Below are positions 1 to 64,000 of a stretch of DNA of 64,000 nucleotides, piece by piece. The DNA comes from a virus (taxonomy: Duplodnaviria > Caudoviricetes). Both the position numbers and the translations under genes were made by a program. The notes under the pieces were generated by a model. The model was not told the origin of the DNA. It was given only the letters and a program-made list of their open reading frames with translations, and made no database searches. Positions within the stretch are counted from its first letter, which is position 1; each line of letters starts with the position of its first letter. The stretch is taken from positions 6,205 to 70,204 of the IMG/VR virus record IMGVR_UViG_3300036982_000217; one strand, written 5' to 3'.

Positions 1-501
1 ACAGCTATTTCACAAGGTGGTTCTTCTGTTAGCAATTCTATACTTTTTGGTGTACTTTCTAATACTAACACATATGGTACAGGAAATCAGCCACCAGGCA
101 CTTTTGCTGGAGGTACAACAGTTTATATGTCTAGACCTTTAATAGCAGGTGCAATAGGTGGTGGACTTAGTACAGCAAATGCAACTAATGTAGGTGGATC
201 TATAAATTTAACTGGTCTTGCTACAGCTCAAGTAATAGCAACAGTTTCAGGAGGAACCCTAGTAGGTAGTAGTGGTAGTAATGGTTCATTAATAACTAAT
301 AGTCCTTCAGGATTATTTTTCTCAACAGCAGGTGGTGGCGGATCTTCTGGTAATTCTGTTGCTACATTAGGTGGTGGTGCAGGTGGTACTGGTGGGCCAG
401 GTGCTGGTGGTGGAGGAGGTGGTGCTTCTGCAAATGGTATTAACTCAGGTGCTGGAGGAAATGGTGGAAATGGATTTTGTATAATAATTACATATTTCTA
501 A
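1..501 (+). CDS. C-terminal part of a glycine-rich tail fibre/appendage protein (5' truncated)
   Basis: Frame 1 is open from base 1 (TAISQGGSSV...). Ends in GGGAGGTGGPGAGGGGGGAS...GGNGGNGFCIIITYF, a glycine-rich C-terminus typical of phage fibre proteins. Confidence 0.65.
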   Translation, partial: TAISQGGSSVSNSILFGVLSNTNTYGTGNQPPGTFAGGTTVYMSRPLIAGAIGGGLSTANATNVGGSINLTGLATAQVIATVSGGTLVGSSGSNGSLITNSPSGLFFSTAGGGGSSGNSVATLGGGAGGTGGPGAGGGGGGASANGINSGAGGNGGNGFCIIITYF

Positions 502-635
502 TGTTACGAGTAGCAATAATTGTAGACAATAAGGTAGAAAATATCATAACTATAGAAGAAGAAAATCTATACATGCTTTCAGAAGTTACTTATATTGTTT
601 CTGACACATTAGAAATCGGGGATATAATATCTTAA
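501..635 (+). CDS. small 44-aa protein, possible fibre chaperone
   Basis: ATG overlaps the upstream TAA (TAATG coupling). Reads MLRVAIIVDNKVENIITIEEENLYMLSEVTYIVSDTLEIGDIIS. Below the ORF-track cutoff. Confidence 0.6.
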   Translation: MLRVAIIVDNKVENIITIEEENLYMLSEVTYIVSDTLEIGDIIS

Positions 636-639
636 TTAA

Positions 640-672
640 TTTGTTATCTAAATAATTTTCATTATATTATAG
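640..672 (+). promoter_or_regulatory. putative Bacteroidota-type promoter TTTG-N19-TATATTATAG
   Basis: Same two boxes and spacing as at 22062. Resembles the Bacteroidota -33 TTTG / -7 TAnnTTTG consensus. Confidence 0.65.
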
Positions 673-695
673 ATATAATATATAATTATTTAGAA

Positions 696-1679
696 ATGGA
701 TATCTTAAATTTTATCAGTTGGATTAGAGGTCGCAGAGTAGTAAATTCTGTTGACCCTAATAAAACATTGCTACCTGTGGCTCTTCAAGATGAAAGAAGA
801 GATGATGAATATTTAACAGGTGCTATTTCTGTGGCAAATTTTACAACACAAGTTGCATCAACAATACCAGCTGGAGCTCAAGGACCAATAGGTCCTCAAG
901 GTGTACCAGGACCAGTAGGACCAGCAGGTCTTAATTGGCAAGGTGCATGGTCAAATACTGGTGTTTATGTAGTTAATGATGCAGTAGGTTTTGGTGGAGC
1001 ATCTTATTTTTGCATTAATCCAGTAGGACCATCCCCTTCAGATCCTGCTTCTGATCCATTAAACTGGGCATTACTAGCTTCTCAAGGTGCTACTGGTCCA
1101 CAAGGTCCTCAAGGAATCCAAGGTCCTGTTGGACCCGCTGGAAGTTCAAATCCTAATTTTAGTGTTGTACCATCAGGATTAGTTGTAGCATCTTCACCTT
1201 TTAATGTAGTTGTTTCTTTTTCAACTATTCCGGCAAATACATTTAATAATACAACAAAACCGATATTAACTATTAAAAGTGTTTTGCAAAAAGTTGCATC
1301 TTTAAACACTATGGTTGTTAGATTATATATTTCAAATAATGTTCCTTTTCAGGGTATTGATTATAATACAGTTGGGGCAACATTGCTTGCAGAGGGTGAT
1401 ACAGCAACAAATGGAGCTACTCAAAGAATTGTAAAAATTGAAAAAGATGTTTTCTTTTCTGGAGCTACAGCAGTATTTTTAGCATTAGGACTTCCTAGCG
1501 ATGGTTTTTCAGATTCAGCTATTGGTGCAAATTCATCTACATATAACTCAAATATATTTGATAATGGTTTATTAGTAGGATCAATTGATTGGACTCAAAA
1601 TGTTTATATAGTAGTTACTGTTCAATCTAGTGGAACAGATCAAATTGGTTCTAGATATTTATCAGTTGTAAGAATTTAA
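696..1679 (+). CDS. collagen-like repeat fibre/appendage protein
   Basis: Two G-X-Y tracts (GAQGPIGPQGVPGPVGPAG; GATGPQGPQGIQGPVGPAG) flank a WQGAWSNTGVYVVNDAVGFGGASYFCI module typical of phage collagen fibres. Confidence 0.75.
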   Translation: MDILNFISWIRGRRVVNSVDPNKTLLPVALQDERRDDEYLTGAISVANFTTQVASTIPAGAQGPIGPQGVPGPVGPAGLNWQGAWSNTGVYVVNDAVGFGGASYFCINPVGPSPSDPASDPLNWALLASQGATGPQGPQGIQGPVGPAGSSNPNFSVVPSGLVVASSPFNVVVSFSTIPANTFNNTTKPILTIKSVLQKVASLNTMVVRLYISNNVPFQGIDYNTVGATLLAEGDTATNGATQRIVKIEKDVFFSGATAVFLALGLPSDGFSDSAIGANSSTYNSNIFDNGLLVGSIDWTQNVYIVVTVQSSGTDQIGSRYLSVVRI

Positions 1680-1710
1680 TAATTAATAATAAAAGCAAAA
1701 ACAAAAAGTC

Positions 1711-2181
1711 ATGGATATTCTAAATTTTATTTCTTGGATTAAAGCAGGAAATTACAGAGAAACTCTTCCTACAGATGTTACTAACTTACTACCTATTGGA
1801 GCTAAAGATCCAAATAGAGATGATGCTTGGTTACCATTAGCAGTAAATGCTGCACCATTACAATCTTTATATGATAATGGTACTGTAACTCAGTTGACTT
1901 CAATTACAACAGCGGTTACTTTGAATGCATTTAATGGTGTAATCACTACTGTATCTTCTACATTAGCTGCAAATGCTAAAACATTTTTTACAGTAAATAA
2001 CTCTAATGTTACTGCTACTTCAAGAATTATTGTATCTGCAGAGTATGATGAAGCTGCAACAGGGATTGTTGTTTTAGGTGTATCAGATATTGCAACAGGA
2101 TCATTTAAAGTTGTATTGTCAAATGGTGGAAATGCTGCATTAAATAATGTAGTTAAAGTACACTTTATGGTTATTAATTAA
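1711..2181 (+). CDS. putative structural fibre protein, N-terminus paralogous to 696..1679
   Basis: Starts MDILNFISWI and contains RDD, like the previous gene. Thr/Val/Ala-rich beta-type C-terminus. Confidence 0.65.
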   Translation: MDILNFISWIKAGNYRETLPTDVTNLLPIGAKDPNRDDAWLPLAVNAAPLQSLYDNGTVTQLTSITTAVTLNAFNGVITTVSSTLAANAKTFFTVNNSNVTATSRIIVSAEYDEAATGIVVLGVSDIATGSFKVVLSNGGNAALNNVVKVHFMVIN

Positions 2182-2193
2182 TAAATACTAATT

Positions 2194-2532
2194 ATGTCAA
2201 TAGGAAATTTAAAAGACTACGGAAACAAAGGAAATAATTTTCCTTGGCAATTAAAAGTACTTGAAGGCCTACAAAAAATTTATGATTTTTTAGTAGGAAG
2301 TAGTGCAGTAGCAACAAGAACACCTGTAATTCTTTCTGATACTGGTGCTGGAGGTATATCAGTAACATATGGTTTTTCAATAGCCAATGTTGGAGCTGCT
2401 TCTGGAACAGTCAATGGTGTTACAATACCTGCAGGAACAACTGTAAATTTTGCTCCTGATAAGAATAACTCTCTAAGTGGTATTACTTATGATGCAACAG
2501 GTACTACATTTTTAATTACTTGGATTCAATAA
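2194..2532 (+). CDS. hypothetical phage protein, probably structural
   Basis: 112-aa ORF in a tightly packed operon with an A/T-rich leader. Confidence 0.6.
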   Translation: MSIGNLKDYGNKGNNFPWQLKVLEGLQKIYDFLVGSSAVATRTPVILSDTGAGGISVTYGFSIANVGAASGTVNGVTIPAGTTVNFAPDKNNSLSGITYDATGTTFLITWIQ

Positions 2533-2535
2533 GTT

Positions 2536-3786
2536 ATGAGTACCATAGTTTCCATAGCTGGAGGTTCAGGTTCTAATGATATTCTTACCCAATACCCAAT
2601 GCTCACAGATGCATTTGGTAGAGTTAGAACCGCACAACCATTAACATTATTTGATTCATCTCATAGATATAGAGATAATGGTTTATGGAATACTTCTACA
2701 ACAAGTGGAGGTACTGCAGTATTTAGCCCAAATGAAGGGTTAGTAAATCTAAATGTAACTGGTACAGCTGGATCTGAAGTACTAAGAGAAACCGCAAAAG
2801 TGTTTTCTTATCAACCAGGTAAGTCTTTGTTGGTTATGAATACATTTGTAATGGCTCCAGCTCAAACTAACCTAAGACAAAGGGTGGGTTATTTTGGAAC
2901 AGAAAATGGTATATATATTCAATTAAGAGATAACACTTTAAGTTTTGTAGAAAGAAGTTTAGTTACAGGTGTTGTAACTGAAACTGTTGTAGATCAAGCT
3001 TCTTGGAATGCTGATACAATGGATGGCAATGGACCATCTGGAATAACTTTAGATATTAGTAAAGCTCAGATTCTATTTATGGATATTGAGTGGTTAGGTG
3101 AAGGCACAGTAAGAATAGGGTTTATAATAGATGGAAACTTTATAGTTTGTCATAGATTTAATCATGCTAACTTAATTACTTCTACTTATATTACTACAGC
3201 TTCATTACCATTAAGATATGAGATACTTAATGTATCAACAGCAACAGCAACCACATTAAAGCAAGTTTGTTCTTCTGTAATATCAGAGGGAGGATATGAG
3301 TTAAGAGGAGCACAACAAGCTGTTGGTACACCTATACTTACTCCAAAAACTTTTGCTGTAGCAGGAACTTATTATCCTATGGTAGGTATTAGATTAAAGT
3401 CTACTGCATTAGATGCTATAGTTATAACTACAGCGGTATCTTTATTAGGATTAGGTAATGGTAAAAATTATGCATGGAGAATTGTGCAATCTGCTACAAC
3501 AACAGGAGGGTCTTGGGTTTCAGCAGGAGTAGATTCATCTGTAGAATATAACCTTACAGGGACATCTGTTACGGGTGGTAGAATATTAGCACAAGGATAT
3601 GTAAATTCATCTAATCAAGGTTCTCCAAGTATCAATATATTAAAAGAGGCAATATTTGCTAGTCAATTAGAAAGAAATACTTTTACAGGTGCACGTTTTG
3701 AATTAGTTATTGAAATGGCTATTGATGCTACAGGAGGAACTTTAGGAGCATATGTTTCATTAGACTGGGAAGAGGTAAGTAGATAA
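2536..3786 (+). CDS. phage protein of unknown function, probably virion-associated
   Basis: 416-aa beta-rich ORF. The DAFGRVRTAQPLTLFDS start is a motif I recognise from aquatic phage structural regions (recall, not searched). Confidence 0.6.
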   Translation: MSTIVSIAGGSGSNDILTQYPMLTDAFGRVRTAQPLTLFDSSHRYRDNGLWNTSTTSGGTAVFSPNEGLVNLNVTGTAGSEVLRETAKVFSYQPGKSLLVMNTFVMAPAQTNLRQRVGYFGTENGIYIQLRDNTLSFVERSLVTGVVTETVVDQASWNADTMDGNGPSGITLDISKAQILFMDIEWLGEGTVRIGFIIDGNFIVCHRFNHANLITSTYITTASLPLRYEILNVSTATATTLKQVCSSVISEGGYELRGAQQAVGTPILTPKTFAVAGTYYPMVGIRLKSTALDAIVITTAVSLLGLGNGKNYAWRIVQSATTTGGSWVSAGVDSSVEYNLTGTSVTGGRILAQGYVNSSNQGSPSINILKEAIFASQLERNTFTGARFELVIEMAIDATGGTLGAYVSLDWEEVSR

Positions 3787-3813
3787 GCTATAGATAAAAC
3801 ATATCAATTTACA

Positions 3814-4302
3814 ATGAGTACATTAATTCAAATATCTAACCCGCAAAATCCAATTGTTTTAACAATGGATGGTAATCCTGTTGCAGGTACAATTGCAGAA
3901 ACAGATTGTTCAATAATAAGCGTAGATCCGGGACAACTAAATTCTGGAGATATGTTTACTACTTTAGCTAAGCATCATATTATAGCTACAACTGGAACAA
4001 GTATCTATAGATTATACTATAATAATGTACCAACATTTGTAGGTGGCAGCTTAATAGCAACATCTAGTACTTTAACTCCCGGACTTAATTCAGGTTCTTT
4101 TTCTAGATTTTTTACAATTAGTGGTACTAATATTATTGGAGCTGATCCTATTGGTCAAGTTGAAACTGATTATAATCAAATAGCTGATGCTATTACATTT
4201 ATTGATTTAACTAATACAATGTACTTTATTTTTACAATTGAGAATTCAGATGTAAGTACTATTGCAGATGTTCCAAAATTTGTTACCCAAATATTTAAAT
4301 AG
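3814..4302 (+). CDS. hypothetical protein
   Basis: 162-aa ORF co-directional with its neighbours. Confidence 0.6.
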   Translation: MSTLIQISNPQNPIVLTMDGNPVAGTIAETDCSIISVDPGQLNSGDMFTTLAKHHIIATTGTSIYRLYYNNVPTFVGGSLIATSSTLTPGLNSGSFSRFFTISGTNIIGADPIGQVETDYNQIADAITFIDLTNTMYFIFTIENSDVSTIADVPKFVTQIFK

Positions 4303-4303
4303 T

Positions 4304-4591
4304 ATGAAAAACTTAATTATACTTTCTTTACTACTAGTATTTATCACTTCTTGTTCATTAGAAAGAAGACTTGAAAAATACTGTCCACTTTGTACTCAGA
4401 AAGATAGTATAGTTACTATAACACAAATTAGAGATACTACTATTAATATTCCGGGAGAAACTGTATATATAGAAAATACATTATTTGATACAACTGTACC
4501 TCAAACTTTAGATATTAGAGTACTTTGGGGTAGCAATAATCCAACAAATAAGATATATCTTGAATCATTTGTGCTGACAAAGATTTTTTAA
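4304..4591 (+). CDS. lipoprotein, spanin-like, possibly truncated or chimeric
   Basis: Start at 4304 gives MKNLIILSLLLVFITSC, a signal peptide with lipobox Cys. Lies directly before the holin-like genes. Confidence 0.55.
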   Translation: MKNLIILSLLLVFITSCSLERRLEKYCPLCTQKDSIVTITQIRDTTINIPGETVYIENTLFDTTVPQTLDIRVLWGSNNPTNKIYLESFVLTKIF

Positions 4592-4592
4592 A

Positions 4593-5141
4593 ATGAAAAC
4601 GGCATTATCAAAATTAGTAATATCAGCAGGCTACAGAGACATGGATCATTTTGTTACAAGTGCATTTCATCCTCAAATGGCTGGAACATGCACAGGAGTA
4701 AGTGCATTATTTGCAGGTATTGCTTATTATTTTAATGCTGTGTTTGGCATTGTTCTTCCAGTAGGAATAGGTATTATACTTCTTTTTGGACTTGAGTTCT
4801 ATACAGGACTTAAAGCTTCTAAATCAGAAGGTAAAAAATTTGACTCAGAACTATTTGGAAAAGGCTGGTTTAAGTTATTTGTTTACATGCTTATGATAGG
4901 AATATCAAATGCAATGGCAACTAATATAGAAATAAAACCTATATTTGGTTTTACTTTTAATGTGTATGAGTGGCTACACTATGCATTTTATAACTATGTA
5001 ATTATTAATTTAATCTGGTCAAACCTAGAAAATTTTAAAAGATTAGGATGGACAGAGTATTCTCCAATACTTAAACGTCTATCAAAATATATAAAAGATG
5101 AACCAATAAAACCAATAGATCATGAAGGAGAAAACAATTAA
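4593..5141 (+). CDS. putative holin
   Basis: Several hydrophobic helices, a WSNLENFKRLG motif resembling the SILEN motif of holin-4-type proteins, and a charged C-terminus. Confidence 0.65.
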   Translation: MKTALSKLVISAGYRDMDHFVTSAFHPQMAGTCTGVSALFAGIAYYFNAVFGIVLPVGIGIILLFGLEFYTGLKASKSEGKKFDSELFGKGWFKLFVYMLMIGISNAMATNIEIKPIFGFTFNVYEWLHYAFYNYVIINLIWSNLENFKRLGWTEYSPILKRLSKYIKDEPIKPIDHEGENN

Positions 5142-5340
5142 AGAAAGATGGAATGGTAAAACACCTAAGTTCTGGAAAAAAGTACAAAGGTGGGCCATTA
5201 TTACAGGAGCAGTTGCAGGAGCAATTATAGCTGCTCCAATTACTTTGCCAATTGGTGTAGTAACAGCTGCTAGTTATTTAGCTGCAGTTAGCGCAACAGT
5301 TGCAACAACCTCACAATTAACAATAGAAGATGGAAAATAA
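5122..5340 (+). CDS. small membrane protein, holin/antiholin-like
   Basis: Basic N-terminus (KTPKFWKKVQRW) followed by two Ala/Val-rich helices. Confidence 0.55.
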   Translation: MKEKTIKERWNGKTPKFWKKVQRWAIITGAVAGAIIAAPITLPIGVVTAASYLAAVSATVATTSQLTIEDGK

Positions 5341-5629
5341 AAAGAAAATAGAAGACTTTGAAGTAGAAGTAAAAACTAAGAAAGTCAAAGCTAAAGTAAA
5401 GAAAGAAGGTGAAAAAGTAGATGTTACTGTTGACACAGACAAAGTAGACGTTGAAGTACACAAAACATCTGAAGAAAAACACTTCAAGCTGGATGGTAGA
5501 AAGCTAGATGTAGAAGTAAAGAAAACTGCAGAAGGCACTCAAGTTAATGTAGAATCTGAGAACAACTTCCTTAGAAAAGTAGGAAAGTATATTGGAAATA
5601 TAATTGCCAAAAGATTCAAAAAGAAATAA
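5330..5629 (+). CDS. Lys/Glu/Val-rich hypothetical protein
   Basis: 99-aa ORF overlapping the previous gene, with internal KVDV-type repeats. Confidence 0.6.
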   Translation: MENKKKIEDFEVEVKTKKVKAKVKKEGEKVDVTVDTDKVDVEVHKTSEEKHFKLDGRKLDVEVKKTAEGTQVNVESENNFLRKVGKYIGNIIAKRFKKK

Positions 5630-5634
5630 TTGTA

Positions 5635-5793
5635 ATGAAGTATAGAAACAATTGGAAAAACACATTTAGGTATTGGCAAACACTAATGCTTAGATTAAGG
5701 TTTTTTGGCATTGATTTCTTTTCATTAGAAATTGATATCCCTAGAAACTTTTATCTTTTAACAGTTTTAAATCTTACAATTAAGAATAGATAG
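5635..5793 (+). CDS. small 52-aa hypothetical protein
   Basis: MKYRNNWKNTFRYWQTLMLRLRFFGIDFFSLEIDIPRNFYLLTVLNLTIKNR fills the gap before the terminator. Confidence 0.55.
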   Translation: MKYRNNWKNTFRYWQTLMLRLRFFGIDFFSLEIDIPRNFYLLTVLNLTIKNR

Positions 5794-5818
5794 TTATCTA
5801 CTTCTCTAGATATATAGA

Positions 5819-5850
5819 AATCCAGGTGTGTTATGTGCCTGGATTTTTTT
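5819..5850 (+). terminator. Rho-independent terminator
   Basis: AATCCAGG-loop-CCTGGATT stem followed by a T tract. Confidence 0.8.
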
Positions 5851-5853
5851 ATT

Positions 5854-5893
5854 TAAACTTCTATAATTTAAATTAAAAAAATATATATATTTG
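5854..5893 (+). promoter_or_regulatory. palindrome TAAACTTCTATAATTTA plus -7 box TATATTTG
   Basis: TATATTTG at 5886-5893 matches TAnnTTTG exactly. 17-bp imperfect palindrome at 5854-5870. Confidence 0.6.
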
Positions 5894-5918
5894 TCTAAAC
5901 CAATTAAATTAATGTCTT

Positions 5919-6221
5919 ATGGAAACAATTAACCAACAACCAGAAATGCAACTAACTCCTGAACAGTTAGAAGAGCAAAAAGAAAAAATGCTAGAGTTTT
6001 ATCAAACTTCTATGCCTTATTTAAGAGCACAATTAGATTATGAAGAACTGCTTTTAAAAATTGATGAAGCAAGATTTAAAAGATCTAGTATTCAATATCA
6101 ATATGCTATGATGATGGCTCCTCAACAAGAAGAAGCAGATGAAGAAAGAGGTTCAGATTTTGATATTGATAAAGAGTCTAGTACAGCAGATCAAGGAAAA
6201 AGAAAGCTTAAAAGAGGCTAG
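5919..6221 (+). CDS. hypothetical protein with helical N-terminus and acidic/basic tail
   Basis: First ORF after the promoter, 100 aa. Confidence 0.65.
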   Translation: METINQQPEMQLTPEQLEEQKEKMLEFYQTSMPYLRAQLDYEELLLKIDEARFKRSSIQYQYAMMMAPQQEEADEERGSDFDIDKESSTADQGKRKLKRG

Positions 6222-6223
6222 TC

Positions 6224-6601
6224 ATGGCTATAGTAAATCAAGTACAGAAGCGTGTAAGAATGCCTAAGTGGGATGTGGTTAAGTTTCAAATACTTACCCA
6301 CTGCTATGTTAATAGAATCAACTTAAGTGACTCTGACCTTAACTGCTTGACTTTACTAAGTTTTAATGAGCCAATAGAATTAACTCATTTTTGTTATGAT
6401 GCATCTTCAGAAGAAGAGCCTATTTTTAAGTCTCCACAGACTGTGAGAAACTGTATAAATAAAGCTGAGAAAACTAACTTAGTTGTTAAAGATGAAGAAA
6501 ACAAAAAATTAATTCGGATAAATCCAAGTTTAAAAATTCAGACAACAGGTACTATTTTATTAGACTATAAATTTTTAGGAGATGAATCCCAGAAAGCCTA
6601 A
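6224..6601 (+). CDS. hypothetical protein, possible winged-HTH DNA-binding protein
   Basis: SPQTVRNCINKAEKTNLVVK followed by a beta-hairpin resembles a wHTH recognition helix and wing (inference). Confidence 0.45.
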   Translation: MAIVNQVQKRVRMPKWDVVKFQILTHCYVNRINLSDSDLNCLTLLSFNEPIELTHFCYDASSEEEPIFKSPQTVRNCINKAEKTNLVVKDEENKKLIRINPSLKIQTTGTILLDYKFLGDESQKA

Positions 6602-6944
6602 AAGAATATATCAAGAAGTTGCAGAAGAATTAAATATTGATAAGGATTTAGTAGAAGACTTAGTAGAGTTTTATTACAAAAATGTCAGAAGCTTATTATC
6701 TAATTTAGAATATCCTAGAATAAACATAGAAGGTCTTGGTCATTTTGTTTCAAAACCAAAGATGGTATATGGATCAATAGAAAAGATATCAAGAATATTA
6801 AAAGAACATGACACATCTACATTTAAAGCTTATCATAATAAGAAAGCACTAGAAAATAAATTAGAACTACTACTGAAATTAAATCTTAAGATTCAAGATC
6901 AAACAGAAAAAAGAGAAACCTTTTTTAAAAACAAAAATAAATGA
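6582..6944 (+). CDS. HU/IHF-like DNA-binding protein
   Basis: IYQEVAEELNIDKDLVEDLVEFYYKNVRSLL...RINIEGLGHFVSK follows the HU/IHF helix-helix-beta pattern. Confidence 0.7.
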   Translation: MNPRKPKRIYQEVAEELNIDKDLVEDLVEFYYKNVRSLLSNLEYPRINIEGLGHFVSKPKMVYGSIEKISRILKEHDTSTFKAYHNKKALENKLELLLKLNLKIQDQTEKRETFFKNKNK

Positions 6945-7234
6945 AAAATGTACTTAATCTAATCTGGCAAAATAGATCACAGATATTTGAAGGTATTAAA
7001 AACTCTGTCATTAGAGATGAGACAGTGGAAGAAATATCTAGACTCAGATATGATATTTGTGATGAGTGTGAGCATAAAGGTAGAAAGTGTGCAGTAAAAG
7101 GAACAGCACCTTGCTGTAATGAGTGTGGATGTTCACTTAATTTTAAAACAAGATCATTATCATCTGAATGTCCACTTGGTAAATGGCAAGCAATTATTAC
7201 AGAAGAACAAGAAGAACAATTGGATAAGTTATGA
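6941..7234 (+). CDS. Cys-rich zinc-binding protein (DUF6171-like)
   Basis: CDEC...C...CCNECGCSLNFKTRSLSSECPLGKW. Confidence 0.65.
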   Translation: MKNVLNLIWQNRSQIFEGIKNSVIRDETVEEISRLRYDICDECEHKGRKCAVKGTAPCCNECGCSLNFKTRSLSSECPLGKWQAIITEEQEEQLDKL

Positions 7235-8064
7235 GTATAGTATTTAATGCAAAAGATCATAGCTATAAAAGCAATGATGGTTCAGAAATAAATTGGATTA
7301 GTGTTACCACACTAGTATCTCATTTTAAGAAACCTTTTGATGCAGAAAAGATTGCAAAAAAAGTTTCTAAAAATAAAAGATCTAAATGGTTTAATATAAA
7401 CCCAAAAGATATTATATCCATTTGGAATGCTGAATCAGAAAGAGCAGTAACTCTTGGTACATTTTATCATAACCAAAGAGAAGCTGACTTATGTTCTTTA
7501 GCATCAATAGAAAGAGAAGGAATAACTGTTCCAGTATTTAAACCAAATGATTTAACAAATGGAATTAAATTAGCACCATCTCAAAAATTAGAACCAGGCG
7601 TGTATCCAGAACATATGGTTTATCTTAAATCAGTTGGAATCTGTGGACAGTCTGATCTTGTAGAAGTAGTAAATGGATGTGTAAACATTATTGACTATAA
7701 AACCAACAAAGAGATCAAGACTGAATCTTACAAAGATTGGGAGGGAGTTTCTGAAAAGTTACTCCCACCTTTATCTAATTTAGATGATTGCAACTTTAAT
7801 CATTACTGTTTACAGTTAAGTATCTATATGTATATGATACTTAAACACAATCCTAAATTGCAACCCGGAAGAATGTTTATTCATCATATACTATTTGAAA
7901 CAGAAGGAGAAGATAGATATGGATATCCACTTACCAGATATGATGATAATGGAGACCCAATTGTAAAAGATGTAATTCAAATAGACATCCCATATTTAAA
8001 AGATGAAGTAACAGCTATTATGCATTATTTACATGATAATAGAAATAATATTAAAAAGAAATGA
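7231..8064 (+). CDS. PD-(D/E)XK (Cas4/RecB-like) nuclease
   Basis: ICGQSDLV...IIDYKT...YCLQLSIY carries motifs II, III and the QxxxY motif intact. Confidence 0.8.
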   Translation: MSIVFNAKDHSYKSNDGSEINWISVTTLVSHFKKPFDAEKIAKKVSKNKRSKWFNINPKDIISIWNAESERAVTLGTFYHNQREADLCSLASIEREGITVPVFKPNDLTNGIKLAPSQKLEPGVYPEHMVYLKSVGICGQSDLVEVVNGCVNIIDYKTNKEIKTESYKDWEGVSEKLLPPLSNLDDCNFNHYCLQLSIYMYMILKHNPKLQPGRMFIHHILFETEGEDRYGYPLTRYDDNGDPIVKDVIQIDIPYLKDEVTAIMHYLHDNRNNIKKK

Positions 8065-8576
8065 TTGTAAAACTATTTGATATACAGAACGGCAAAGTAA
8101 TTCCTACAGAACATTGCTATACACTAAAAGCACTTAAGATGGTAATGGATAATTATCCTGATGATTATATCAAGATATACCAATACTTGTTTTACATGAC
8201 CTGCCCTAATCCAGACTTGAACCCATTCTTTTATACACCAGAAGTAGATAAAGAATCTCTCATACTTGAACAGATAGATGCAGAGTTCTCTACAGAAGAT
8301 CAGGATATCTTTATAGCACTACAGTTCTGTCAGAGAATGTATGAAACACCTACATCTAGAGCATATAAAGGTATTGCATCTATGTTAGATAGATTAGCTA
8401 AATATATGGAGACTACACCTATCTCACACGGTAGAGATGGTAATATTAACTCTCTGGTAGCTGCAGCAAAAAACTTTGAACAGATTAGAGCATCATTTAA
8501 AGGTGCCTATAAAGATCTACAGGAAGAACAATCTAGTAGAGTAAGAGGTGGTATTGGAATGGCATATGATCAATAA
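8061..8576 (+). CDS. protein coupled to terL, candidate terminase small subunit
   Basis: Its stop overlaps the terL start and it has a helical C-terminus. Assignment is by position only. Confidence 0.45.
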   Translation: MIVKLFDIQNGKVIPTEHCYTLKALKMVMDNYPDDYIKIYQYLFYMTCPNPDLNPFFYTPEVDKESLILEQIDAEFSTEDQDIFIALQFCQRMYETPTSRAYKGIASMLDRLAKYMETTPISHGRDGNINSLVAAAKNFEQIRASFKGAYKDLQEEQSSRVRGGIGMAYDQ

Positions 8577-10777: not shown

Positions 10778-10779
10778 CT

Positions 10780-13530: not shown

Positions 13531-13569
13531 CACTTAGCTATATAGTGCGAAAAATAAATTTTATTATCA

Positions 13570-13601
13570 TAAATTTTTGAAGTTTATTTCTTATATTAAA
13601 T
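13570..13601 (+). promoter_or_regulatory. palindrome TAAATTTTTGAAGTTTA plus TATATTAAAT box
   Basis: Intergenic, upstream of the scaffold/MCP operon. Same palindrome family as 5854, 42208 and 49336. Confidence 0.6.
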
Positions 13602-13621
13602 TATAAACAAAACCAACAAAT

Positions 13622-14869: not shown

Positions 14870-14897
14870 TTAAGTAACAAATAAAACAAATATAAAA

Positions 14898-21416: not shown

Positions 21417-22046
21417 ATGGAACAAAAGAGATTACTAAAAAGATTAGATACTAGTGTAGTAAAATTACCTGCAACTACAGGAATTCCTAGTATTGATAAA
21501 CCAAGCTCAGGTGCTTCAAAAGAAGTTCCAGATGTAGCTACAATGAACCCACTCATTACTGAGAATGCAGTTGATTATTTAAATTATAGAATTCAACAAG
21601 AAGAATATTCTTCAAGAATCTATATGTCAATGACAATGTGGTTAGATGAAAAAGGTTTTAAAGGTGCTGCTGCTTTATGGAGAAAGTATTCAGATGAAGA
21701 ACTTACTCATGCAGATATTGCACGCAAATACTTATTATCATTTGGTGTACAACCACTAACTCCAAGATTAGACCAACCTCAGCAAGATTACTCAGGTAGT
21801 CTTCCAGAGATTGTTAGATTATCTTATGAGCATGAGATTGAAGTATCAACTCAAATCAAAAAAATGGCAGACTTTGCAATGTCAAATAAAGATCATATTC
21901 TTTATGAGTTATGTTTAGGTTACTTAAAAGAACAAGTAGAAGAGCATGATAAAATGCAAACTTGGATGGATAAGCTTAAAACATTTGGTACAGATCCATT
22001 AGCTTTAAGATTACTTGATAATGATATGGCAGAAGTAGCTGGATAA
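21417..22046 (+). CDS. ftnA: non-haem ferritin (FtnA-like) with an N-terminal extension of about 45 aa
   Basis: QQEEYSSRIY, DEELTH, YEHE and KEQVEE align with the E. coli FtnA ferroxidase residues (E17, Y24, E50, H53, E94, Q127, E130). Confidence 0.9.
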   Translation: MEQKRLLKRLDTSVVKLPATTGIPSIDKPSSGASKEVPDVATMNPLITENAVDYLNYRIQQEEYSSRIYMSMTMWLDEKGFKGAAALWRKYSDEELTHADIARKYLLSFGVQPLTPRLDQPQQDYSGSLPEIVRLSYEHEIEVSTQIKKMADFAMSNKDHILYELCLGYLKEQVEEHDKMQTWMDKLKTFGTDPLALRLLDNDMAEVAG

Positions 22047-42210: not shown

Positions 42211-42253
42211 ACTTAATAGATTTACTAATTAAATTTATTTTTAGTATATTTAG
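42208..42253 (+). promoter_or_regulatory. palindrome TAAACTTAATAGATTTA, N20, TATATTTAG box
   Basis: Same layout as 49336-49382. Confidence 0.6.
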
Positions 42254-42269
42254 TAATATATAGTGTATA

Positions 42270-45200
42270 ATGGCAAAAAGAAAAGTAATAGTTTATAAAG
42301 ATCCTTATGGTAAAGGAGGCTATATAAATAAAACCGCTAAATGGTTAAATAAAGCACAGATGGGTGCAGAGTCTGGAGTTAGTCCTGTAACTGCCGGGAT
42401 CATGCAGCAGATGCAAAGTATGCAACCACAACAACAGCAACAACAACAAGTTAATTTTGAAGATATCATAGTTAAAGATATTGTAGAAATGATTTCTAGA
42501 GGTGGTGGAAGTGAAGATGTTAAAGAAGCTGTGTATGCTAAATATGCACCATATGAAGAGAGCTATCCTGAACTTTCAAGAATACTACCAAATTTAAATC
42601 AACTTGTAGAGGGTGTATTTGCACACCTAGGTGAGGAAGCAAGAGAACAACAAAATGAAAGACTTGAAATAACAGAAGAAACAACTGTTGAAAATCCAGA
42701 GCAAGAAGAAGAGCCAGATGATAATTCTGCAAGTTATTATAATGAATTAGCAGAATCAGATAATGATGCTAACTACATGGATTATACTAATAATAATTCT
42801 AGGTCTAGTATAGTAAATGATATGGAGTTTAATGCTCTTGATGATGATGAAGATGTAGAAGAAACACAATCACAACAATATATACAACCACAACAAGAAG
42901 GAGTAGAAGCTGATTATGGAAGTGCTGATGATGTTAGAAATAACTGGGCATATAAACAAACAGGAGGAGCAGTTCCTAACAAAAGATCATTTGTAAATAA
43001 AATGGTTAGACAGCTTAAAAAAGCTCAGGATGGACAACAAACTCCTGCTTCTGGAACTGAAACAAAAGATGCTAACACAGCTAATGTAAAAGGTACTGAA
43101 AACAATCCTACTCAACCAGTATCTACAACAACTAATAATACTTTTGTTGGAGCTATAAGAAATCAAGCACAAGATAATTATTACAGACAACAAGCAGAAC
43201 AGATGTACAGAAATATGTACATGAATCAGAGACCTGGATTATTTGGTGGTGGTAGAATGGCAAGAGCAAATAGAAGAATGTTTGGTGTACCATTTACTCC
43301 TCCAGGAGTAACTTCTGCAAAATATAACTTTGGATTATTTGGTGGACTAAGAAATGCAGACATACAGTTTAATCCACTTATCTTAATGTCAATGTTTCCA
43401 TCAATGTCTTTTCCTGGGATGTATGGTGTTAATCAGTCAGGTAAGGTTGTAACTCCCGGAAGACTTGTTACTGAAACAATAGCACAAGAAGTAAATAATA
43501 AATCTACAGAAGAAGTAGCAAAAGCTACAGGATCAGAAGCTGCAGCAAAAGCAGCTGATAAATCAAATACTCCATCTGCTACTACAACCTCTGGAAAAAC
43601 TACTGGAACAACAAAGGGATTAGGTATTTCAACAAAAACAGCACCTTCTAATAAGTCACGTTGGCCACAATTAACTCCAAGTTCTATTACTCAATTTAAT
43701 AGTCCTGTCACACCAGTAATAACTCCAACACCAAAACCAGTTCCTAAAAGTACTGGTAAAGTTGATATGTCAGGAATAACAACTGTTACTCCAAAGGTAA
43801 CTCCTAAACCAGCACTTATACCACCTCCAAAATTCCCAGATAAGGGAGGTTTGGGTTTTTGGGATGAGATGAGAAAGTATGCTGATATGGGAGACTTTCA
43901 AGTTGGTGGTTTTGTAGATCCTAATAGACCTGACTTAACAAAATTTGTATATGGTAATGAAGTAGATAATATGTTTTTATCAGACATATTACAACCACCA
44001 GTAAATCAATCTGACTTAGATTATACAGACTCTAAAGATGTAACAGATCCATATTTTAGAGATGGTGGCTTATATAGGTTTGATGGAACTGGTAACAGTG
44101 AAGTAGATAAATCTAATACTTTTAAACCTATTACTACTAAAGAAGAGTATGATAAAGCAATAGCAGAAGAAAAAAAGAAAATAGAAGAAGCTACACAAAA
44201 GAAATACAATACACAAACTCAAACACAACAACAACAATATTATCCTGGTGGTTTTGGTTCTGCTGGACCTTGGCAACCAGTATGGGGATATCCTCAATTT
44301 GGCGGTAATCCATATGCAGGATCTTTTGGTGGAAGAGGAATGTTTCAAACTGCTGCTAATCTATACAGACCATTTACTAGAGGGGCTTCTACATTTTCAC
44401 CAGTAGGTGATCCATTGCAATATGCTGCAACAGCTGCAGCAATTACCAAAGCTGGAATGCTTCCTACCGGTACAAAATATAGTAAAGAAAGAAAACAAGA
44501 TGGTAATTGGTTTGAAAGAAACTTAGGTTTTAATAAAGATAGAATTACAACTATAGATTATGCTACTCCAGGACAAATAGCTGCAGGTTTGCCCGCACTA
44601 TCTGGTATAGCAGCAGGAACAACAGGTCAACAAGATAATAGAGGTTATAAATATAAAGGAATGGGTCTCACAGGTTTAAGACTTGGAGCTAATGATCTTA
44701 TCCAAAGAATAAAATATGGAAAGCCTTTAGAAGATGATAGACCATATACACAACAGTCAACTACTCCAGCATCAAATTTTAGAGTAGAAAGTCCATATAC
44801 ACCTGTCTCAAGTATGACAAGTACTCAAGGTGCAGATGTAGTTACTGGAACTCCTGGAACACCTGTAAATATAAATTCAAATAGTGCATTAAATACAACC
44901 CCAGGTACTGCACCTTCCAGGCCTACAGCAGGTACACCAAAAACTATTCAACAAATTAAAGATGATGCATATGAAAATAAAAAATTATCTTCAAATGATA
45001 TTACTAGTCTTGAAAAAGAATATGGTGATTTAGGTCCAGATTCAGATATTGTAGCAGAATCTTTTGAAAATTATGATGAATTTAAAAAATTTATGGATTC
45101 AGGTCCTACACAATCTCAACTTGATGATAAAATAAGGCAAGGTTATAAAGTTAGAAATAGAAGAATAGGAGAATTCTACGGAGAAGATGATAGAGGTTAT

Positions 45201-46811
45201 AAAATATATAAAGATGATTTAGATTATTTTGATAAAGAAACACAAGATGTAATAAATCAAACAAGAATGCAATTCAACCCAATGGGATTGGGTGCAAGTC
45301 CAAGAGAAGTACCTGCTATGCCATCAGTAGGTGTACCAACAACTCCTGCTGCAGTTCAAGCACAACAAACAGCTGCTGCAGCACAAAATATTACACCACA
45401 AAGAACTGCAAATATTTATGACAATCCTACTACAAGTAGAAAAGGAAATTTTACTGTAATTAATGCTGCGGGAGAACCTGTTAATATAGAGGATGCAGAC
45501 TACTATGATGAGGAAGAAATGGTTGCTCCACAACAAAATAATAGTGTAGACAATAATGTAGATGCTTATGAAACAGAAAGCTTTTCTCCTAATCCATATG
45601 ATAGGAGTATGCAGCCATTTAATCCAGATTATGAGCAACCTACAGAATATGAATTTGGTGTAAATCCAACTACAGGTTCAGGACCCAATGATATGTTTAC
45701 TTCAGAGGCAAATCCTTTATATGCTGAATACAATCCTGATGTAGATTTTAATGATGAAGAAGAAATATTTCAAACTAAACCTGCATCTAACAAACCTACA
45801 GCCAAACCTACAGCTAAATCTGCAGCCCCTGTTAAAAAGAAAGATAGTTGGAAATATGGTAACTATGGTAGTAAAATAGCTGAAAACTATAATAATCCTA
45901 AATATATAAATAAGTTAGCTAGTACTTTTAAGATGGAATGGAATATGAATATTCCACAAGAAATTGTAAAAAAAGGTGATGCAGAAATTGCAAGATGGTA
46001 TAAACAAAATAATTATTATAATAATATAGAAAGAGCAAACCAAGCAAGAAATAATGCTTTATGGAAAATTCAAAATAATCCGAATTTAACCACAAAAAAA
46101 AGAGAAGAAGCAGAATCTGGGCTTTGGTCATTATATTATACCACAGCTAAAAATATTGAAAATGAATTTAATAAAAAAGCAAGTTGGAAAACAACATCCA
46201 GAATATATGATGCCTCTGGTAAACCAGCATATCAAAAATATGGTGGGATTCCTAGAGCTGATCTTGGAATAAATTTTTCTCCAGTATCATATCCTGCAAA
46301 TAGTATAGTACAACCTGGTGGTATTGGTCAGGGTAAAATAGGTCCATGTACAGAAGCTGAAGTAAAAGATCCTAATAGTCCATGTTATGATCCAATGTAT
46401 GCTGGCCAAGGTCCGCGTGTAATGGAAGAACCACTAGATCAAGCTCAATTAAGATTAAAAGAAAATAGAACTGGTACTATTAACTATGATAATATTTCAA
46501 GAGGATTAATGGATGCTGGTGCTACTCTTGCTGATATAAAGGATTATAGAAATGAAAGATTGAATAGATATATTCCACAAATGACAGATCTAGCAAGAGG
46601 AGAAAGATCATTAGCTTATCAGGATTATAATCCTGGAGGATATGATCCTAGAACAGGTAGAGATGTTTACCAACAAGGCTTTGAAGGAGTAATAGGTAAA
46701 AAAGGTGGATCTATTAAGAATAAAAAAACCAAAGCACCAACTGGTGGTCACAAAATAGATATTAGTGACTTTCAAAATTTAATAAAACTAGCTGGTTTAA
46801 ATAAAAAATAA
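42270..46811 (+). CDS. large low-complexity virion cargo protein
   Basis: 1513 aa with Q-, D/E- and T/P-rich tracts separated by xxGG motifs. Confidence 0.6.
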   Translation: MAKRKVIVYKDPYGKGGYINKTAKWLNKAQMGAESGVSPVTAGIMQQMQSMQPQQQQQQQVNFEDIIVKDIVEMISRGGGSEDVKEAVYAKYAPYEESYPELSRILPNLNQLVEGVFAHLGEEAREQQNERLEITEETTVENPEQEEEPDDNSASYYNELAESDNDANYMDYTNNNSRSSIVNDMEFNALDDDEDVEETQSQQYIQPQQEGVEADYGSADDVRNNWAYKQTGGAVPNKRSFVNKMVRQLKKAQDGQQTPASGTETKDANTANVKGTENNPTQPVSTTTNNTFVGAIRNQAQDNYYRQQAEQMYRNMYMNQRPGLFGGGRMARANRRMFGVPFTPPGVTSAKYNFGLFGGLRNADIQFNPLILMSMFPSMSFPGMYGVNQSGKVVTPGRLVTETIAQEVNNKSTEEVAKATGSEAAAKAADKSNTPSATTTSGKTTGTTKGLGISTKTAPSNKSRWPQLTPSSITQFNSPVTPVITPTPKPVPKSTGKVDMSGITTVTPKVTPKPALIPPPKFPDKGGLGFWDEMRKYADMGDFQVGGFVDPNRPDLTKFVYGNEVDNMFLSDILQPPVNQSDLDYTDSKDVTDPYFRDGGLYRFDGTGNSEVDKSNTFKPITTKEEYDKAIAEEKKKIEEATQKKYNTQTQTQQQQYYPGGFGSAGPWQPVWGYPQFGGNPYAGSFGGRGMFQTAANLYRPFTRGASTFSPVGDPLQYAATAAAITKAGMLPTGTKYSKERKQDGNWFERNLGFNKDRITTIDYATPGQIAAGLPALSGIAAGTTGQQDNRGYKYKGMGLTGLRLGANDLIQRIKYGKPLEDDRPYTQQSTTPASNFRVESPYTPVSSMTSTQGADVVTGTPGTPVNINSNSALNTTPGTAPSRPTAGTPKTIQQIKDDAYENKKLSSNDITSLEKEYGDLGPDSDIVAESFENYDEFKKFMDSGPTQSQLDDKIRQGYKVRNRRIGEFYGEDDRGYKIYKDDLDYFDKETQDVINQTRMQFNPMGLGASPREVPAMPSVGVPTTPAAVQAQQTAAAAQNITPQRTANIYDNPTTSRKGNFTVINAAGEPVNIEDADYYDEEEMVAPQQNNSVDNNVDAYETESFSPNPYDRSMQPFNPDYEQPTEYEFGVNPTTGSGPNDMFTSEANPLYAEYNPDVDFNDEEEIFQTKPASNKPTAKPTAKSAAPVKKKDSWKYGNYGSKIAENYNNPKYINKLASTFKMEWNMNIPQEIVKKGDAEIARWYKQNNYYNNIERANQARNNALWKIQNNPNLTTKKREEAESGLWSLYYTTAKNIENEFNKKASWKTTSRIYDASGKPAYQKYGGIPRADLGINFSPVSYPANSIVQPGGIGQGKIGPCTEAEVKDPNSPCYDPMYAGQGPRVMEEPLDQAQLRLKENRTGTINYDNISRGLMDAGATLADIKDYRNERLNRYIPQMTDLARGERSLAYQDYNPGGYDPRTGRDVYQQGFEGVIGKKGGSIKNKKTKAPTGGHKIDISDFQNLIKLAGLNKK

Positions 46812-49382: not shown

Positions 49383-49400
49383 CTATAGAAAGAAAAAACT

Positions 49401-61326: not shown

Positions 61327-61327
61327 A

Positions 61328-64000
61328 ATGGCTATTACCTGTGCATTAGGATCAGAACATATTGAAGCTCTTACAAGAGTTATAAGTAAAGCAATGTTAA
61401 ACTCACAGACTAAAGGTGAGGCTTTTGACATTAATGATTTCATGAATAGATTATACAGTAACCTTAAAAATAGACAGGGTGTTGATAGTGCTACTCAATA
61501 TATGCAACAAGTACCATATATAATAAATCTAGTAGCAACTAGAAAAGACATAGAGCTTTCAAAGGATAATACTGGTAATGAGATAAATATACTACCATTA
61601 TCTAGAGCATTTAGAAATCAAGACAGCGGAATTCAATTGGTCTATGGATACTTTGAAAAAACATTATCTCCTAAACAATTAGCTTTAATTGCTGAAGATA
61701 ATGCTAATAAACCGGTAGATCAATATACTGAATCAAAACCAGTAGAAGAGTTAACTAGTCCAACAGACAAGAGATTAAAATCTAGAAATGTAAACTCTGG
61801 AACTGATGAGCAGTTCTTAGCTAAGGATCCAAAAACTAAAATTGAAGAATTTGAAGTAACAGATTCTGATAAAATAACTGCTATTAATACTGTATCAAGA
61901 TTGAGTATTAATACAGCTGATATAGACTTATTAGATAATGCAAGTATTGATGGAGTAAATTTAAAACTAAAAGTTATTCCTTTAGATAGACTGTCATCAA
62001 ATGATAGAACAAATTATTCAAATACAATAGTAGCAAGACAAAATGCAATAATCAGTCAAGGCAGTGAAAATAAAGCAACACCAGTTTCAGAACAATTTGC
62101 TTTAGTTCTATCTGATACATCTGGAGCCTTTGTTTATTTTACAAAGGATGGAAGAGTAACTACAAAAGATGAAGGTGGTAGATTAGTCTATCAGATGCTT
62201 AGAGATGTGAGGCTAGAGAATGGTAAGTATAGAGTTACTGATATCTATGGTATAGAAGACCAGATAATTTCTCCAGAAGATATTGTAAATGATGAGATTT
62301 CTTTACTGTACGGGTCTAAAGAAAATTTAGAAAATGCAAAAGGAATGTCTGTTGCAGAGTATATTAAAGAAGTTGAAAAACAACAACAAGAAGAGTTTAA
62401 AAAACTTTATGATTTCAGACAAGAATTAATACGCACTAAGAAAACAAAACTATTAAGTATTACTGGAGCAACACGCGGAGTATTCAGTTTTAAAATACTT
62501 AATAATATAATGATTAATAATTTATCAAGTTATTTTACTGAAGAACAAAGAAAAGCAATTATTGATAGTTTAAATGTAACCCCTAAGAAATTTGAAAATA
62601 TTCCTAGCGGTGGGTCATATGTAACAATTAATAATGAGATATATGAGGTAGATAGAGCAAACATTAATGAAGATACAGCAAGAAAGGTTGCTACCGTATT
62701 AACAAATCCTAATATATCAAATAAACAAAAGATTAACTTTTATCATCAATTTTTCACTGATCAAAAAGTTTCTGTTCCAACAAGCTTTCAAAGACATGAT
62801 TTAAATCTTGTAGATGGGGAACTTATTTTTTCATATGCACCATTTACATTAAATGAAGCAAAAGCAGACACAAGTAAAGCAACACAGAATAAAGAACCAA
62901 AAACAATAAATCTTAAATCTAGTACTGCTGAAAAAGATATCTATGATATTTTTATGAAGGGTGCTACTGGTAAGAATGGAGAACCTTTCAGCTCTAAAAT
63001 TGTGTACAGACCAAGATTAATTGGTGAAGAATATTTAGATTATCAAGATGGTGAATTTGTATTAAGAAGCTATTCAGATTTTTTACAAGAACAAAATGCA
63101 AGAATAAAAGTAAAAGATGGTAAGATAATTCCATTATATAATTCTAGCATTAACTTTACTCTTGATGATACTTTTGTAGATCAAGTAAATAAAGCAAAAG
63201 AAACTGTAGAAAAAGATGATAGATCTGAAATAAGAAAGTTTAAGGATAACTTAGTTGAGGTAATAAAAAACTCACCGGATCAAAAAGTATTAGCCACTGT
63301 AAAAGAATATACTACAGAAGGTGATCCCAAGACAGGAACATTTTCTACATATATTACTGTAGAAATAGAAGGTCAACAAGGAGAACACAAACTAATGAAG
63401 TCTCTAAATCAACCTGAGATAGGTGAAACATTAGAACTTATTATAGACCCTATTGAAATAGAAAATGGTTTTGGATATCCAAATAATATTTCTGCAATTA
63501 AAATAGAAGGGAGTACAATATTAAAATATGGAAATCTTCAAGAAACAGATTTTGGAATAGAAGACCCTAGACCAGCTGTTCCAATGCAAGAAGAGTATGT
63601 TGCAGAACAAGAAGAAATAGAAACATTAGATCAGGTTACAGAAGCACCAAAGACTGTTTCAGAAGAAGAGTCAGATATACAACAATCAGAAGCTTTAAAT
63701 CCTAAGAATGTTAGAAATCCATCAGATGATTCTGAAATATCTAATCTTTTTAATCAGTTTAAATTAGACAGAAAGACAACTTTACCTAGAGGTGTAACAG
63801 CTGAACAAATTAGTAATGCTATCACTTGGTATGATAATTCACCATTAAAGAAATATCTTGGTGAGTTACAGATGATTAGTATTGTAAACTCCGATGCTTA
63901 TGCTAGATTTATTGTAGCTGGATCAACATTACTTGCTGGACAATATACTGGAGCACTTGGTACAATACAAATTAATGAAGCCACAGGAGGTTATGTTGAT
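61328..64000 (+). CDS. N-terminal 891 aa of a giant virion protein (3' truncated), candidate RNA-polymerase-bearing ejection protein
   Basis: ATG at 61328 two bases after the previous stop. The frame is open in the stretches I translated (start and end), MAITCALGSEH...INEATGGYVD. It is absent from the ORF track, consistent with no stop before the window end. Confidence 0.65.
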   Translation, partial: MAITCALGSEHIEALTRVISKAMLNSQTKGEAFDINDFMNRLYSNLKNRQGVDSATQYMQQVPYIINLVATRKDIELSKDNTGNEINILPLSRAFRNQDSGIQLVYGYFEKTLSPKQLALIAEDNANKPVDQYTESKPVEELTSPTDKRLKSRNVNSGTDEQFLAKDPKTKIEEFEVTDSDKITAINTVSRLSINTADIDLLDNASIDGVNLKLKVIPLDRLSSNDRTNYSNTIVARQNAIISQGSENKATPVSEQFALVLSDTSGAFVYFTKDGRVTTKDEGGRLVYQMLRDVRLENGKYRVTDIYGIEDQIISPEDIVNDEISLLYGSKENLENAKGMSVAEYIKEVEKQQQEEFKKLYDFRQELIRTKKTKLLSITGATRGVFSFKILNNIMINNLSSYFTEEQRKAIIDSLNVTPKKFENIPSGGSYVTINNEIYEVDRANINEDTARKVATVLTNPNISNKQKINFYHQFFTDQKVSVPTSFQRHDLNLVDGELIFSYAPFTLNEAKADTSKATQNKEPKTINLKSSTAEKDIYDIFMKGATGKNGEPFSSKIVYRPRLIGEEYLDYQDGEFVLRSYSDFLQEQNARIKVKDGKIIPLYNSSINFTLDDTFVDQVNKAKETVEKDDRSEIRKFKDNLVEVIKNSPDQKVLATVKEYTTEGDPKTGTFSTYITVEIEGQQGEHKLMKSLNQPEIGETLELIIDPIEIENGFGYPNNISAIKIEGSTILKYGNLQETDFGIEDPRPAVPMQEEYVAEQEEIETLDQVTEAPKTVSEEESDIQQSEALNPKNVRNPSDDSEISNLFNQFKLDRKTTLPRGVTAEQISNAITWYDNSPLKKYLGELQMISIVNSDAYARFIVAGSTLLAGQYTGALGTIQINEATGGYVD

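Follow-up and report, generated by a model that had tools for sequence, protein, structure and literature searches.

Avoidance of restriction sites is found mainly in non-temperate phages and has been called "widespread but not universal" (Rusinov et al. 2018, PMC6286503). Here we describe a genome-wide loss of CG dinucleotides in a 64,000-nt stretch of viral DNA (hereafter the window; bases 6205-70204 of the 70,204-bp IMG/VR virus record IMGVR_UViG_3300036982_000217), which derives from an uncultured, lytic, crAss-like freshwater (lake) phage. In a group of crAss-like lineages to which this phage belongs, new 5'-NCG-3' trinucleotides are under purifying selection that is counted per strand and weighted by the base preceding the C (T >> A ~ G > C ~ 0). 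The parallel to restriction-site avoidance (PMC6286503) is that selection acts against short words in a lytic phage that yielded no methylase gene, and that phages of the same host need not follow; the differences are that the unit is a non-palindromic trinucleotide on each strand and that the signal follows the phage lineage across hosts. Word avoidance in phages is usually read as the footprint of palindromic restriction. The present footprint is cleaner and differs in kind: its target has three bases, lies on a single strand and is centred on CG, and it is kept by selection in very abundant lake phages and is absent from phages that probably share their hosts.

Other described systems share part of this pattern. 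Vertebrate-type CpG decay leaves a similarly strong CpG deficit with an excess of TG and CA, but in the present lineage the loss of CG is not accelerated, its gain is blocked, no CG methylase was found and the flanks are graded (T >> A ~ G > C). In RNA viruses of vertebrates, ZAP-type selection turns CpG into a selected liability (reviewed in PMC8410138). The same may be said here, where CpG is a liability under selection and not a mutational scar; however, ZAP reads sense RNA in eukaryotes, whereas the signal in this one-strand-coded bacterial virus is reverse-complement symmetric, which points to DNA. For ZAP, CpGs flanked by A or U are the most counter-selected. Among DNA-acting enzymes, the chlorovirus nicking endonucleases have three-base sites (Nt.CviPII, CCD; Nt.CviQXI, RAG) and EndoII and EndoIV of phage T4 attack host DNA, self-protection being achieved in these viruses by methylation or hydroxymethylcytosine. 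Our signature implies an enzyme of this type, with recognition of about three bases of a single strand, but self-protection would here come from the purging of sites and not from modification, and no homologue was identified. Finally, the anti-phage ADP-ribosyltransferase DarT2 marks single-stranded DNA at a motif of four bases (PMC11543638); it is thus a host defence that marks a very short single-strand motif, although this motif is T-rich and not centred on CG, and avoidance of it by phages is not reported.

Context-graded depletion of CG

The window contains 238 CG dinucleotides where 1655 are expected (observed/expected ratio, o/e, 0.144), with GC dinucleotides at an o/e of 1.18, CA at 1.19 and TG at 1.20, in agreement with the original prediction of a strong CG depletion next to common GC. 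CCGG (38 vs 42.8 expected, o/e 0.89) is far less depleted than half-sites (CCG-H or D-CGG; 104 vs ~451 expected, o/e 0.23) or D-CG-H (96 vs ~1161 expected, o/e 0.083), and the exact counts reproduce those first made by hand in two stretches of the window:

1..64000, no strand: genome-wide context-graded CG depletion, 238 CG, o/e 0.144
1..6000, no strand: first counted stretch, 24 CG (4 CCGG, 12 half-sites, 8 D-CG-H)
40001..46000, no strand: second counted stretch, 23 CG (4 CCGG, 9 half-sites, 10 D-CG-H)

Counted singly, the 16 NCGN words gave strand-symmetrised o/e values that rise from TCGA (0.01), ACGA/TCGT (0.04), CCGA/TCGG (0.05) and GCGA/TCGC (0.06) through ACGT (0.12), ACGC/GCGT (0.20), GCGC (0.23) and ACGG/CCGT (0.23) to CCGC/GCGG (0.59) and CCGG (0.86). 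The proposal that CG is acted upon only when its 5' neighbour is not C therefore holds as to the dependence on the 5' base, but has to be amended as to its form, which is graded (T << A < G < C) and not binary. Residual CGs are spread evenly over the window (3-14 per 2 kb, without islands), which rules out CG islands or recent insertions as their origin; per 64 kb, ~40 TCG/CGA sites and ~200 other CGs are still present. In G000 and in G002 (a 114-kb, 96%-complete relative from IMG/VR), each taken as a whole, CGCG occurs at 3-5 times its trinucleotide prediction, so that residual CGs tend to adjoin each other; TGCA and AGCT are over-represented 1.7-2.3-fold in both, and GGCC stands at 0.51 in G000 vs 0.13 in G002.

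A trinucleotide read on each strand

The gradient is captured by a model that assigns one factor to each strand, set by the base 5' of C. These per-strand factors were 0.09 for T, 0.32 for A, 0.56 for G and 0.91 for C in the 70-kb contig, and 0.10, 0.52, 0.44 and 0.92, respectively, in 1.02 Mb of non-redundant relatives. In this larger sample the multiplicative model fitted better (deviance 33) than an additive loss-rate model (deviance 128), and the odds ratios at synonymous sites (given below) are reverse-complement symmetric; the strand-multiplicative action suspected at the outset is thereby borne out, with log depletions adding across the two strands. Bases beyond the immediate flanks had little effect and added no specificity. 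A cooperative dimer model (product of half-site energies) was rejected, as by hand computation it predicts too small a loss of CCGA/TCGG. Each site may be under very weak selection, with 2Ns of about 1-2.5 for every strand hit.

It could be argued that the deficit sums the avoidance of many palindromic Type II sites containing CG (TCGA, ACGT, GCGC and the 6-mers built on them) in diverse hosts. For Type II sites avoidance is documented as the norm, TCGA, ACGT, GCGC and CGCG are all low, and a palindrome-type loss of CCGG is clear in relatives and in other Bacteroidota phages. However, in maximal-order Markov counts TCGA is as frequent as its trinucleotides predict (4 vs 3.5 expected in G000 and 14 vs 15.0 in G002, ratios 1.15 and 0.93), and the same applies to ACGT (o/e 1.05 in G000, 1.02 in G002) and CCGG (1.07 and 1.13), so that none of these three palindromes is rarer in the two genomes than its sub-words predict, as Type IIP avoidance would have it. 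Non-palindromic NCGN words, in turn, are depleted as far as the strand-wise model predicts (e.g. ACGA/TCGT and CCGA/TCGG, with the o/e of 0.04 and 0.05 given above). Because palindromes match the 3-mer predictions and non-palindromes fall as modelled, classical Type IIP avoidance is disfavoured whether single or summed, and we regard the summed form as quite improbable; the signature found is that of single-strand, three-base recognition.

Action on DNA and not on codons or transcripts

The window is ~96% coding, with nearly all genes on the plus strand. Selection on codons, tRNAs or mRNA was considered as a source of the deficit. CG is depleted at codon positions 1-2, 2-3 and 3-1 (o/e 0.13, 0.16 and 0.27) and also in non-coding DNA (0.20), and no reading frame lacks CCGG (4, 14 and 25 occurrences in the 70-kb contig). 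When synonymous codons were shuffled with proteins and codon usage preserved, 434 +/- 15 CGs were expected at codon junctions and 122 were seen; by the same procedure TCGA was found 0 times vs 41.7 expected, and CCGG 25 times vs 17.2. The odds ratio for C rather than T before G, taken over pooled synonymous NNY sites against controls with the same two neighbours, was 0.014 for TCGA, 0.033 each for TCGT and ACGA, 0.118 each for TCGG and CCGA, 0.225 for ACGT, 0.60 for GCGC and 1.15 for CCGG. The pattern thus persists under both controls, and codon usage is insufficient to explain it, as had been supposed from the reading frames of CCGG.

Furthermore, NCG and its reverse complement are equally depleted although the window genes lie on one strand, and a deficit specific to the transcribed sense strand (of the kind tied to ZAP-like sensing or to mRNA interferase avoidance) was not seen. 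Since this symmetry is found in a genome transcribed from one strand, the cause lies in the DNA rather than in mRNA or translation. Codon-, tRNA- or mRNA-level selection, together with the copying of host composition (amelioration), is hence an extremely unlikely source of the pattern; the evidence on amelioration is given with the hosts below.

Selection against the creation of CG

Between close relatives (17 independent aligned pairs, 0.3-12% divergence; only synonymous sites with conserved neighbours were used), C/T differences at NNY sites had a frequency of 0.106 where the next base was not G and of 0.027 where it was G, the latter comprising 0.008 before GA, 0.023 before GC, 0.024 before GT and 0.065 before GG. 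A two-state estimate for these sites put the T>C gain at 0.085 (next base not G) vs 0.017 (next base G); before G and with a 5' T it fell to 0.0016, 53-fold lower, and in CC|GG it was not lowered (0.074). The C>T loss was 0.21 where the next base was not G vs 0.35 where it was. In fourfold NCR boxes the A>G gain was 0.0037 for TC, 0.0087 for AC, 0.018 for GC and 0.050 for CC (control boxes 0.044-0.057), with no change in loss (0.22-0.55 vs 0.31-0.44). Overall, the creation of CG is suppressed 5- to 53-fold, whereas its loss proceeds at only 1.0-1.6 times the normal rate.

These rates bear on the possibility that CG decayed at a mutational hot spot, through cytosine methylation and deamination or through a context-biased deaminase, a route that the original prediction had listed among its candidates and that would accord with a CG deficit accompanied by the TG and CA excess (1.19-1.20). 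With a hypermutable CpG one would expect a 7- to 100-fold higher loss and an unchanged gain. The converse was found: because CG gain is blocked while CG loss is near normal, selection and not deamination of 5-methylcytosine accounts for the deficit. Moreover, suppression tracks the product (TCG) and not the type of mutation, both TTG>TCG and TCA>TCG being affected; the least diverged pairs already show a ratio of 0.30, with 38 differences vs ~150 expected under the hot-spot model; and the additive-rate model fits worse, as shown above. No C5-methylase (PF00145) was matched in five relatives. We therefore hold mutational decay to be scarcely credible.

Spread among relatives

Window proteins matched the Pfam families crAss_MUZ, CrAss_Ring_1 and CrAss_Ring_2 (muzzle, ring-1 and ring-2), and capsid orthologues in relatives matched Crass_capsid; terminase, portal and major head protein genes are all in the window, and no tRNAs were found in it. 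The terminase is only ~24% identical to those of named Crassvirales and of Flavobacterium and Cellulophaga phages, and deposited phages gave no near match to the window at the DNA level. Relatives by portal protein number more than 446 in IMG/VR. The TCG purge is common to more than 80 IMG/VR relatives. All 45 portal loci longer than 9 kb had a CG o/e of 0.10-0.35 and a TCG o/e of 0.01-0.13, and words containing TCG or CGA never exceeded 0.23. Other words vary (ACGT 0.05-0.52, GCGC 0-0.85, CCGC 0.07-0.82, CCGG 0.27-1.5), and a very low GCG emerges several times among close relatives on the portal tree (L046 0.26 vs L048 0.06). A more distant lake group with another genome layout (L095/L096) shares the TCG purge (0.01) and has no CCGG at all. 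The sparing of CCGG noted at the outset therefore holds for the window but is lineage-specific, as CCGG falls to 0.27-0.48 in certain relatives and to 0 in the L095 group; the purge of TCG/CGA is the conserved core, CCGG sparing a local state, and the G, A and C terms vary by lineage.

Hosts and phages that share them

As a stand-in for the true host, 33 anonymous Bacteroidota contigs were sampled via a 16S probe. The 17 Bacteroidota contigs with a GC content of 28-39% had a CG o/e of 0.37-1.27 and a TCG o/e of 0.39-1.27, without T bias. Other attempts to reach host DNA returned little: a scan of genome contigs for the phage ferritin found only a 5.5-kb contig of a Tissierellales metagenome-assembled genome (MAG) and an Omnitrophota locus, a RecA search returned phage contigs only, and a DnaB search against plasmids gave no Flavobacteriia.

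Phages infecting the same species differ widely. Among those of Flavobacterium psychrophilum, the terminase-related Fpv20 has a CG o/e of 0.094 that is flat across contexts, the temperate 6H one of 1.07 and the lytic FPSV-S8 one of 1.90; among those of Cellulophaga baltica, phi14:2 and phi17:2 stand at 0.49 and 0.39, and phi10:1 and phi13:2 at 0.88 and 0.85. The gut crAss phage cr1_1 has a CG o/e of 0.69. Phages that probably share hosts with the purged lineage were recognised by their lysis genes, as the endolysin of G002 has copies with 72-84% amino-acid identity in ~20 otherwise unrelated, probably jumbo-phage contigs, whose whole CG o/e is 0.55-1.03. At the same GC content (0.366), the endolysin gene carries 17.1 CGs and 9.2 TCG+CGA in these unrelated contigs vs 4.3 and 0.4 in crAss-like genomes. 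Thus neither the Bacteroidota samples standing in for host DNA nor the phages sharing lysis genes or host species bore the same bias; because they are not purged, we conclude that the purge follows the crAss-like lineage and not the probable host.

For amelioration it may be said that many low-GC bacteria and phages are moderately CG-poor (e.g. the Omnitrophota MAG at 0.23 and phi17:2 at 0.39), but these two are flat across contexts. The 17 low-GC contigs without TCG bias, the value of 1.07 in the temperate 6H (taken as a host proxy) and the fourfold difference in CG between endolysin genes of equal GC all contradict a copied host composition.

The binding of the signal to a lineage would also fit an intrinsic constraint of its DNA machinery, by which replication, packaging with small basic proteins or crAss-type polymerases would perform worse on CG without any enzymatic attack, and the very weak selection per site noted above would agree with it. 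On the other hand, strict dependence on a single 5' base together with additivity across strands better fits sequence reading by a protein than a physical property, cr1_1 with similar machinery is not purged (0.69), the spectrum differs between sister lineages and no CG-bearing regulatory motif was seen. Such a constraint appears improbable to us.

Two side observations concern these phages. FPSV-S8 (L223, MW421582.1) is the opposite extreme to Fpv20, being CpG-enriched in all NCG contexts (1.4-2.3), yet it has no CCGG. CCGG is likewise absent or low in the three F. psychrophilum phages (0, 0 and 0.37) and in phi17:2 and phi14:2 (0 and 0) (L082, L223, L224, L091, L225), a loss that looks like ordinary avoidance of an HpaII/MspI-type host system. 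As for the phages linked by lysis genes, the lysis cassette (endolysin and a small neighbour) and a few accessory genes are common to the crAss-like clade and to the unrelated phages at 60-84% amino-acid identity, the shared accessory genes including ThyX in L247 and genes like those at 66730-67077 and 90929-91561 of G002. The probable jumbo contigs (a subset of L233-L305, e.g. L234, L239, L238 and L288) reach a CheckV completeness of 21-34% at 62-99 kb.

Possible agents: host defence or phage enzyme

For mutation, translation, mimicry of the host and classical palindromes, a direct test in each case contradicts the explanation. Each 5'-NCG-3' on either strand acts as an independent liability (T >> A ~ G > C ~ 0), TCGA counting as two strong hits (~100-fold depleted) and CCGG as none (no depletion). 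Of the candidates first put forward, a nuclease or DNA-modifying system is the one that we retain. As a mechanism we propose that, during infection, phage DNA would meet a DNA-acting protein that reads C-G and the 5' base one strand at a time, and that genomes with fewer NCG sites would fare better. Suitable candidates would be a base modifier, a monomeric nickase or a nuclease specific for single strands, any of which would leave just such an additive footprint on each strand, but not a palindrome-reading Type IIP enzyme. The simplest source of such an agent would be a host defence, which the lineage would have evaded by purging sites and not by modifying its DNA; we give this reading a probability of roughly 37%. 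That the agent is a protein, what its activity is and that the host encodes it are all points that we infer.

Several observations speak for a host defence. G002, in which neither a methylase nor, among its annotated genes, an integrase was seen, answers to a virulent phage without a protecting methylase. Because the G, A and C terms differ between sister lineages, the agent would appear to be external and variable. We lean slightly towards host defence because avoidance is known for such phages, because other phages often use other counter-measures and because the flank spectrum shifts between sisters. If correct, it would amount to a new class of CG-directed bacterial immunity, loosely parallel to CpG sensing in animals.

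Other observations weigh against it. Phages probably or certainly sharing hosts are not purged, be it the ~20 endolysin-bearing contigs (CG o/e 0.55-1.03), 6H and FPSV-S8 (1.07 and 1.90 vs 0.094 in Fpv20) or phi10:1 and phi13:2 (0.85-0.88 vs 0.39-0.49 in phi14:2 and phi17:2). The TCG purge is, moreover, uniform over a very large clade with presumably many hosts, unlike strain-variable restriction-modification systems, and a literature search found no defence with a 3-base, CG-centred, single-strand specificity. The same search returned no account of phages purged of CG or TCG, nor of a bacterial defence directed at CG.

Some of these points would be accommodated if the agent were the phage's own virion-borne or early nuclease or nickase, which would shred host DNA at NCG, much as the three-base nickases of chloroviruses and EndoII/EndoIV of T4 attack host DNA, and spare the phage for want of sites. 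In three host settings the purge goes with the crAss-like lineage and co-host phages retain a normal CG, the TCG term is constant over the whole clade and in the distant L095 group, the target is abundant in the Bacteroidota DNA that was sampled (TCG o/e 0.39-1.27), and several giant ejected proteins (1513, 841, 1027, 2951 and >890 aa) have no assigned function. Against this, no candidate gene emerged (see below), changes of flank specificity between sisters would be self-damaging, and ~40 TCG/CGA sites and ~200 other CGs persist per 64 kb. We consider a phage-encoded agent of this kind rather unlikely, though well within consideration. Just as doubtful, in our view, is the broader reading that an undescribed DNA-acting enzyme recognises NCG one strand at a time (T >> A ~ G > C) and that the environmental crAss-like lineage is built around it. 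In its boldest form, this enzyme would be the phage's own host-shredding nickase, perhaps residing in a giant ejected protein, and self and host would be told apart by the purge alone, without DNA modification. An enzyme of the phage's own would represent a novel means by which a virus distinguishes its DNA from that of its host. Whichever source is considered, the spectrum (T >> A ~ G > C, with some lineages adding G or C) provides a precise specificity against which enzyme searches could be matched.

Gene content and candidate agents

The inventory of G002 comprises replication genes (DNA polymerase, primase, DnaB and an SNF2 helicase), genes for nucleotide metabolism and repair (UDG, ThyX and a MazG-like pyrophosphatase), an exonuclease and a GIY-YIG homing-type nuclease, together with an HU-like protein, ClpS and lysins. 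This 96%-complete genome yielded no gene for a methylase, a deaminase or hypermodification, and with the lack of C5-methylase matches in five relatives the suggestion of a base modification made by the phage itself finds no support in gene content. Two nucleases were considered as the agent and rejected. The SegE-like GIY-YIG open reading frame was found only in G002. In the window, just one conserved gene of a nuclease family was seen, and this is the second candidate:

7231..8061, plus strand: PD-(D/E)XK_1 (Cas4/RecB-like) nuclease gene adjoining the terminase genes, Pfam E 1.1e-05

Its product has 70% identity to its counterpart in G002 and 34% to gp25 of Fpv20, but the tree of this gene shows no correspondence to the GCG purge spectrum. 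This tree also conflicts with the portal tree (e.g. L057 falls within the G000 set, and L065 pairs with L040), which implies module exchange within the clade. The giant proteins gave no informative PDB or Pfam matches, and a large number of ORFs have no assignment. In G002, a small-ORF and probably early region (84001-96000; L087) has a CG o/e of 0.20-0.28 vs 0.10-0.20 elsewhere in the genome, and no common CG-bearing promoter-like repeat or motif was seen in it.

Further genomic features

The product of the window gene at 49401-52484 matches designed pentatricopeptide-repeat proteins over a short stretch (residues ~477-525, E 1e-08), probably a low-information helical repeat. A ferritin gene (21417-22046 of the window) lies within the structural operon and is not a recent acquisition: it matched 465 proteins at E<=1e-10, with identities down to ~59%, those listed being on phage-size contigs (<=138 kb), and its position in the genome differs in the L095 group.

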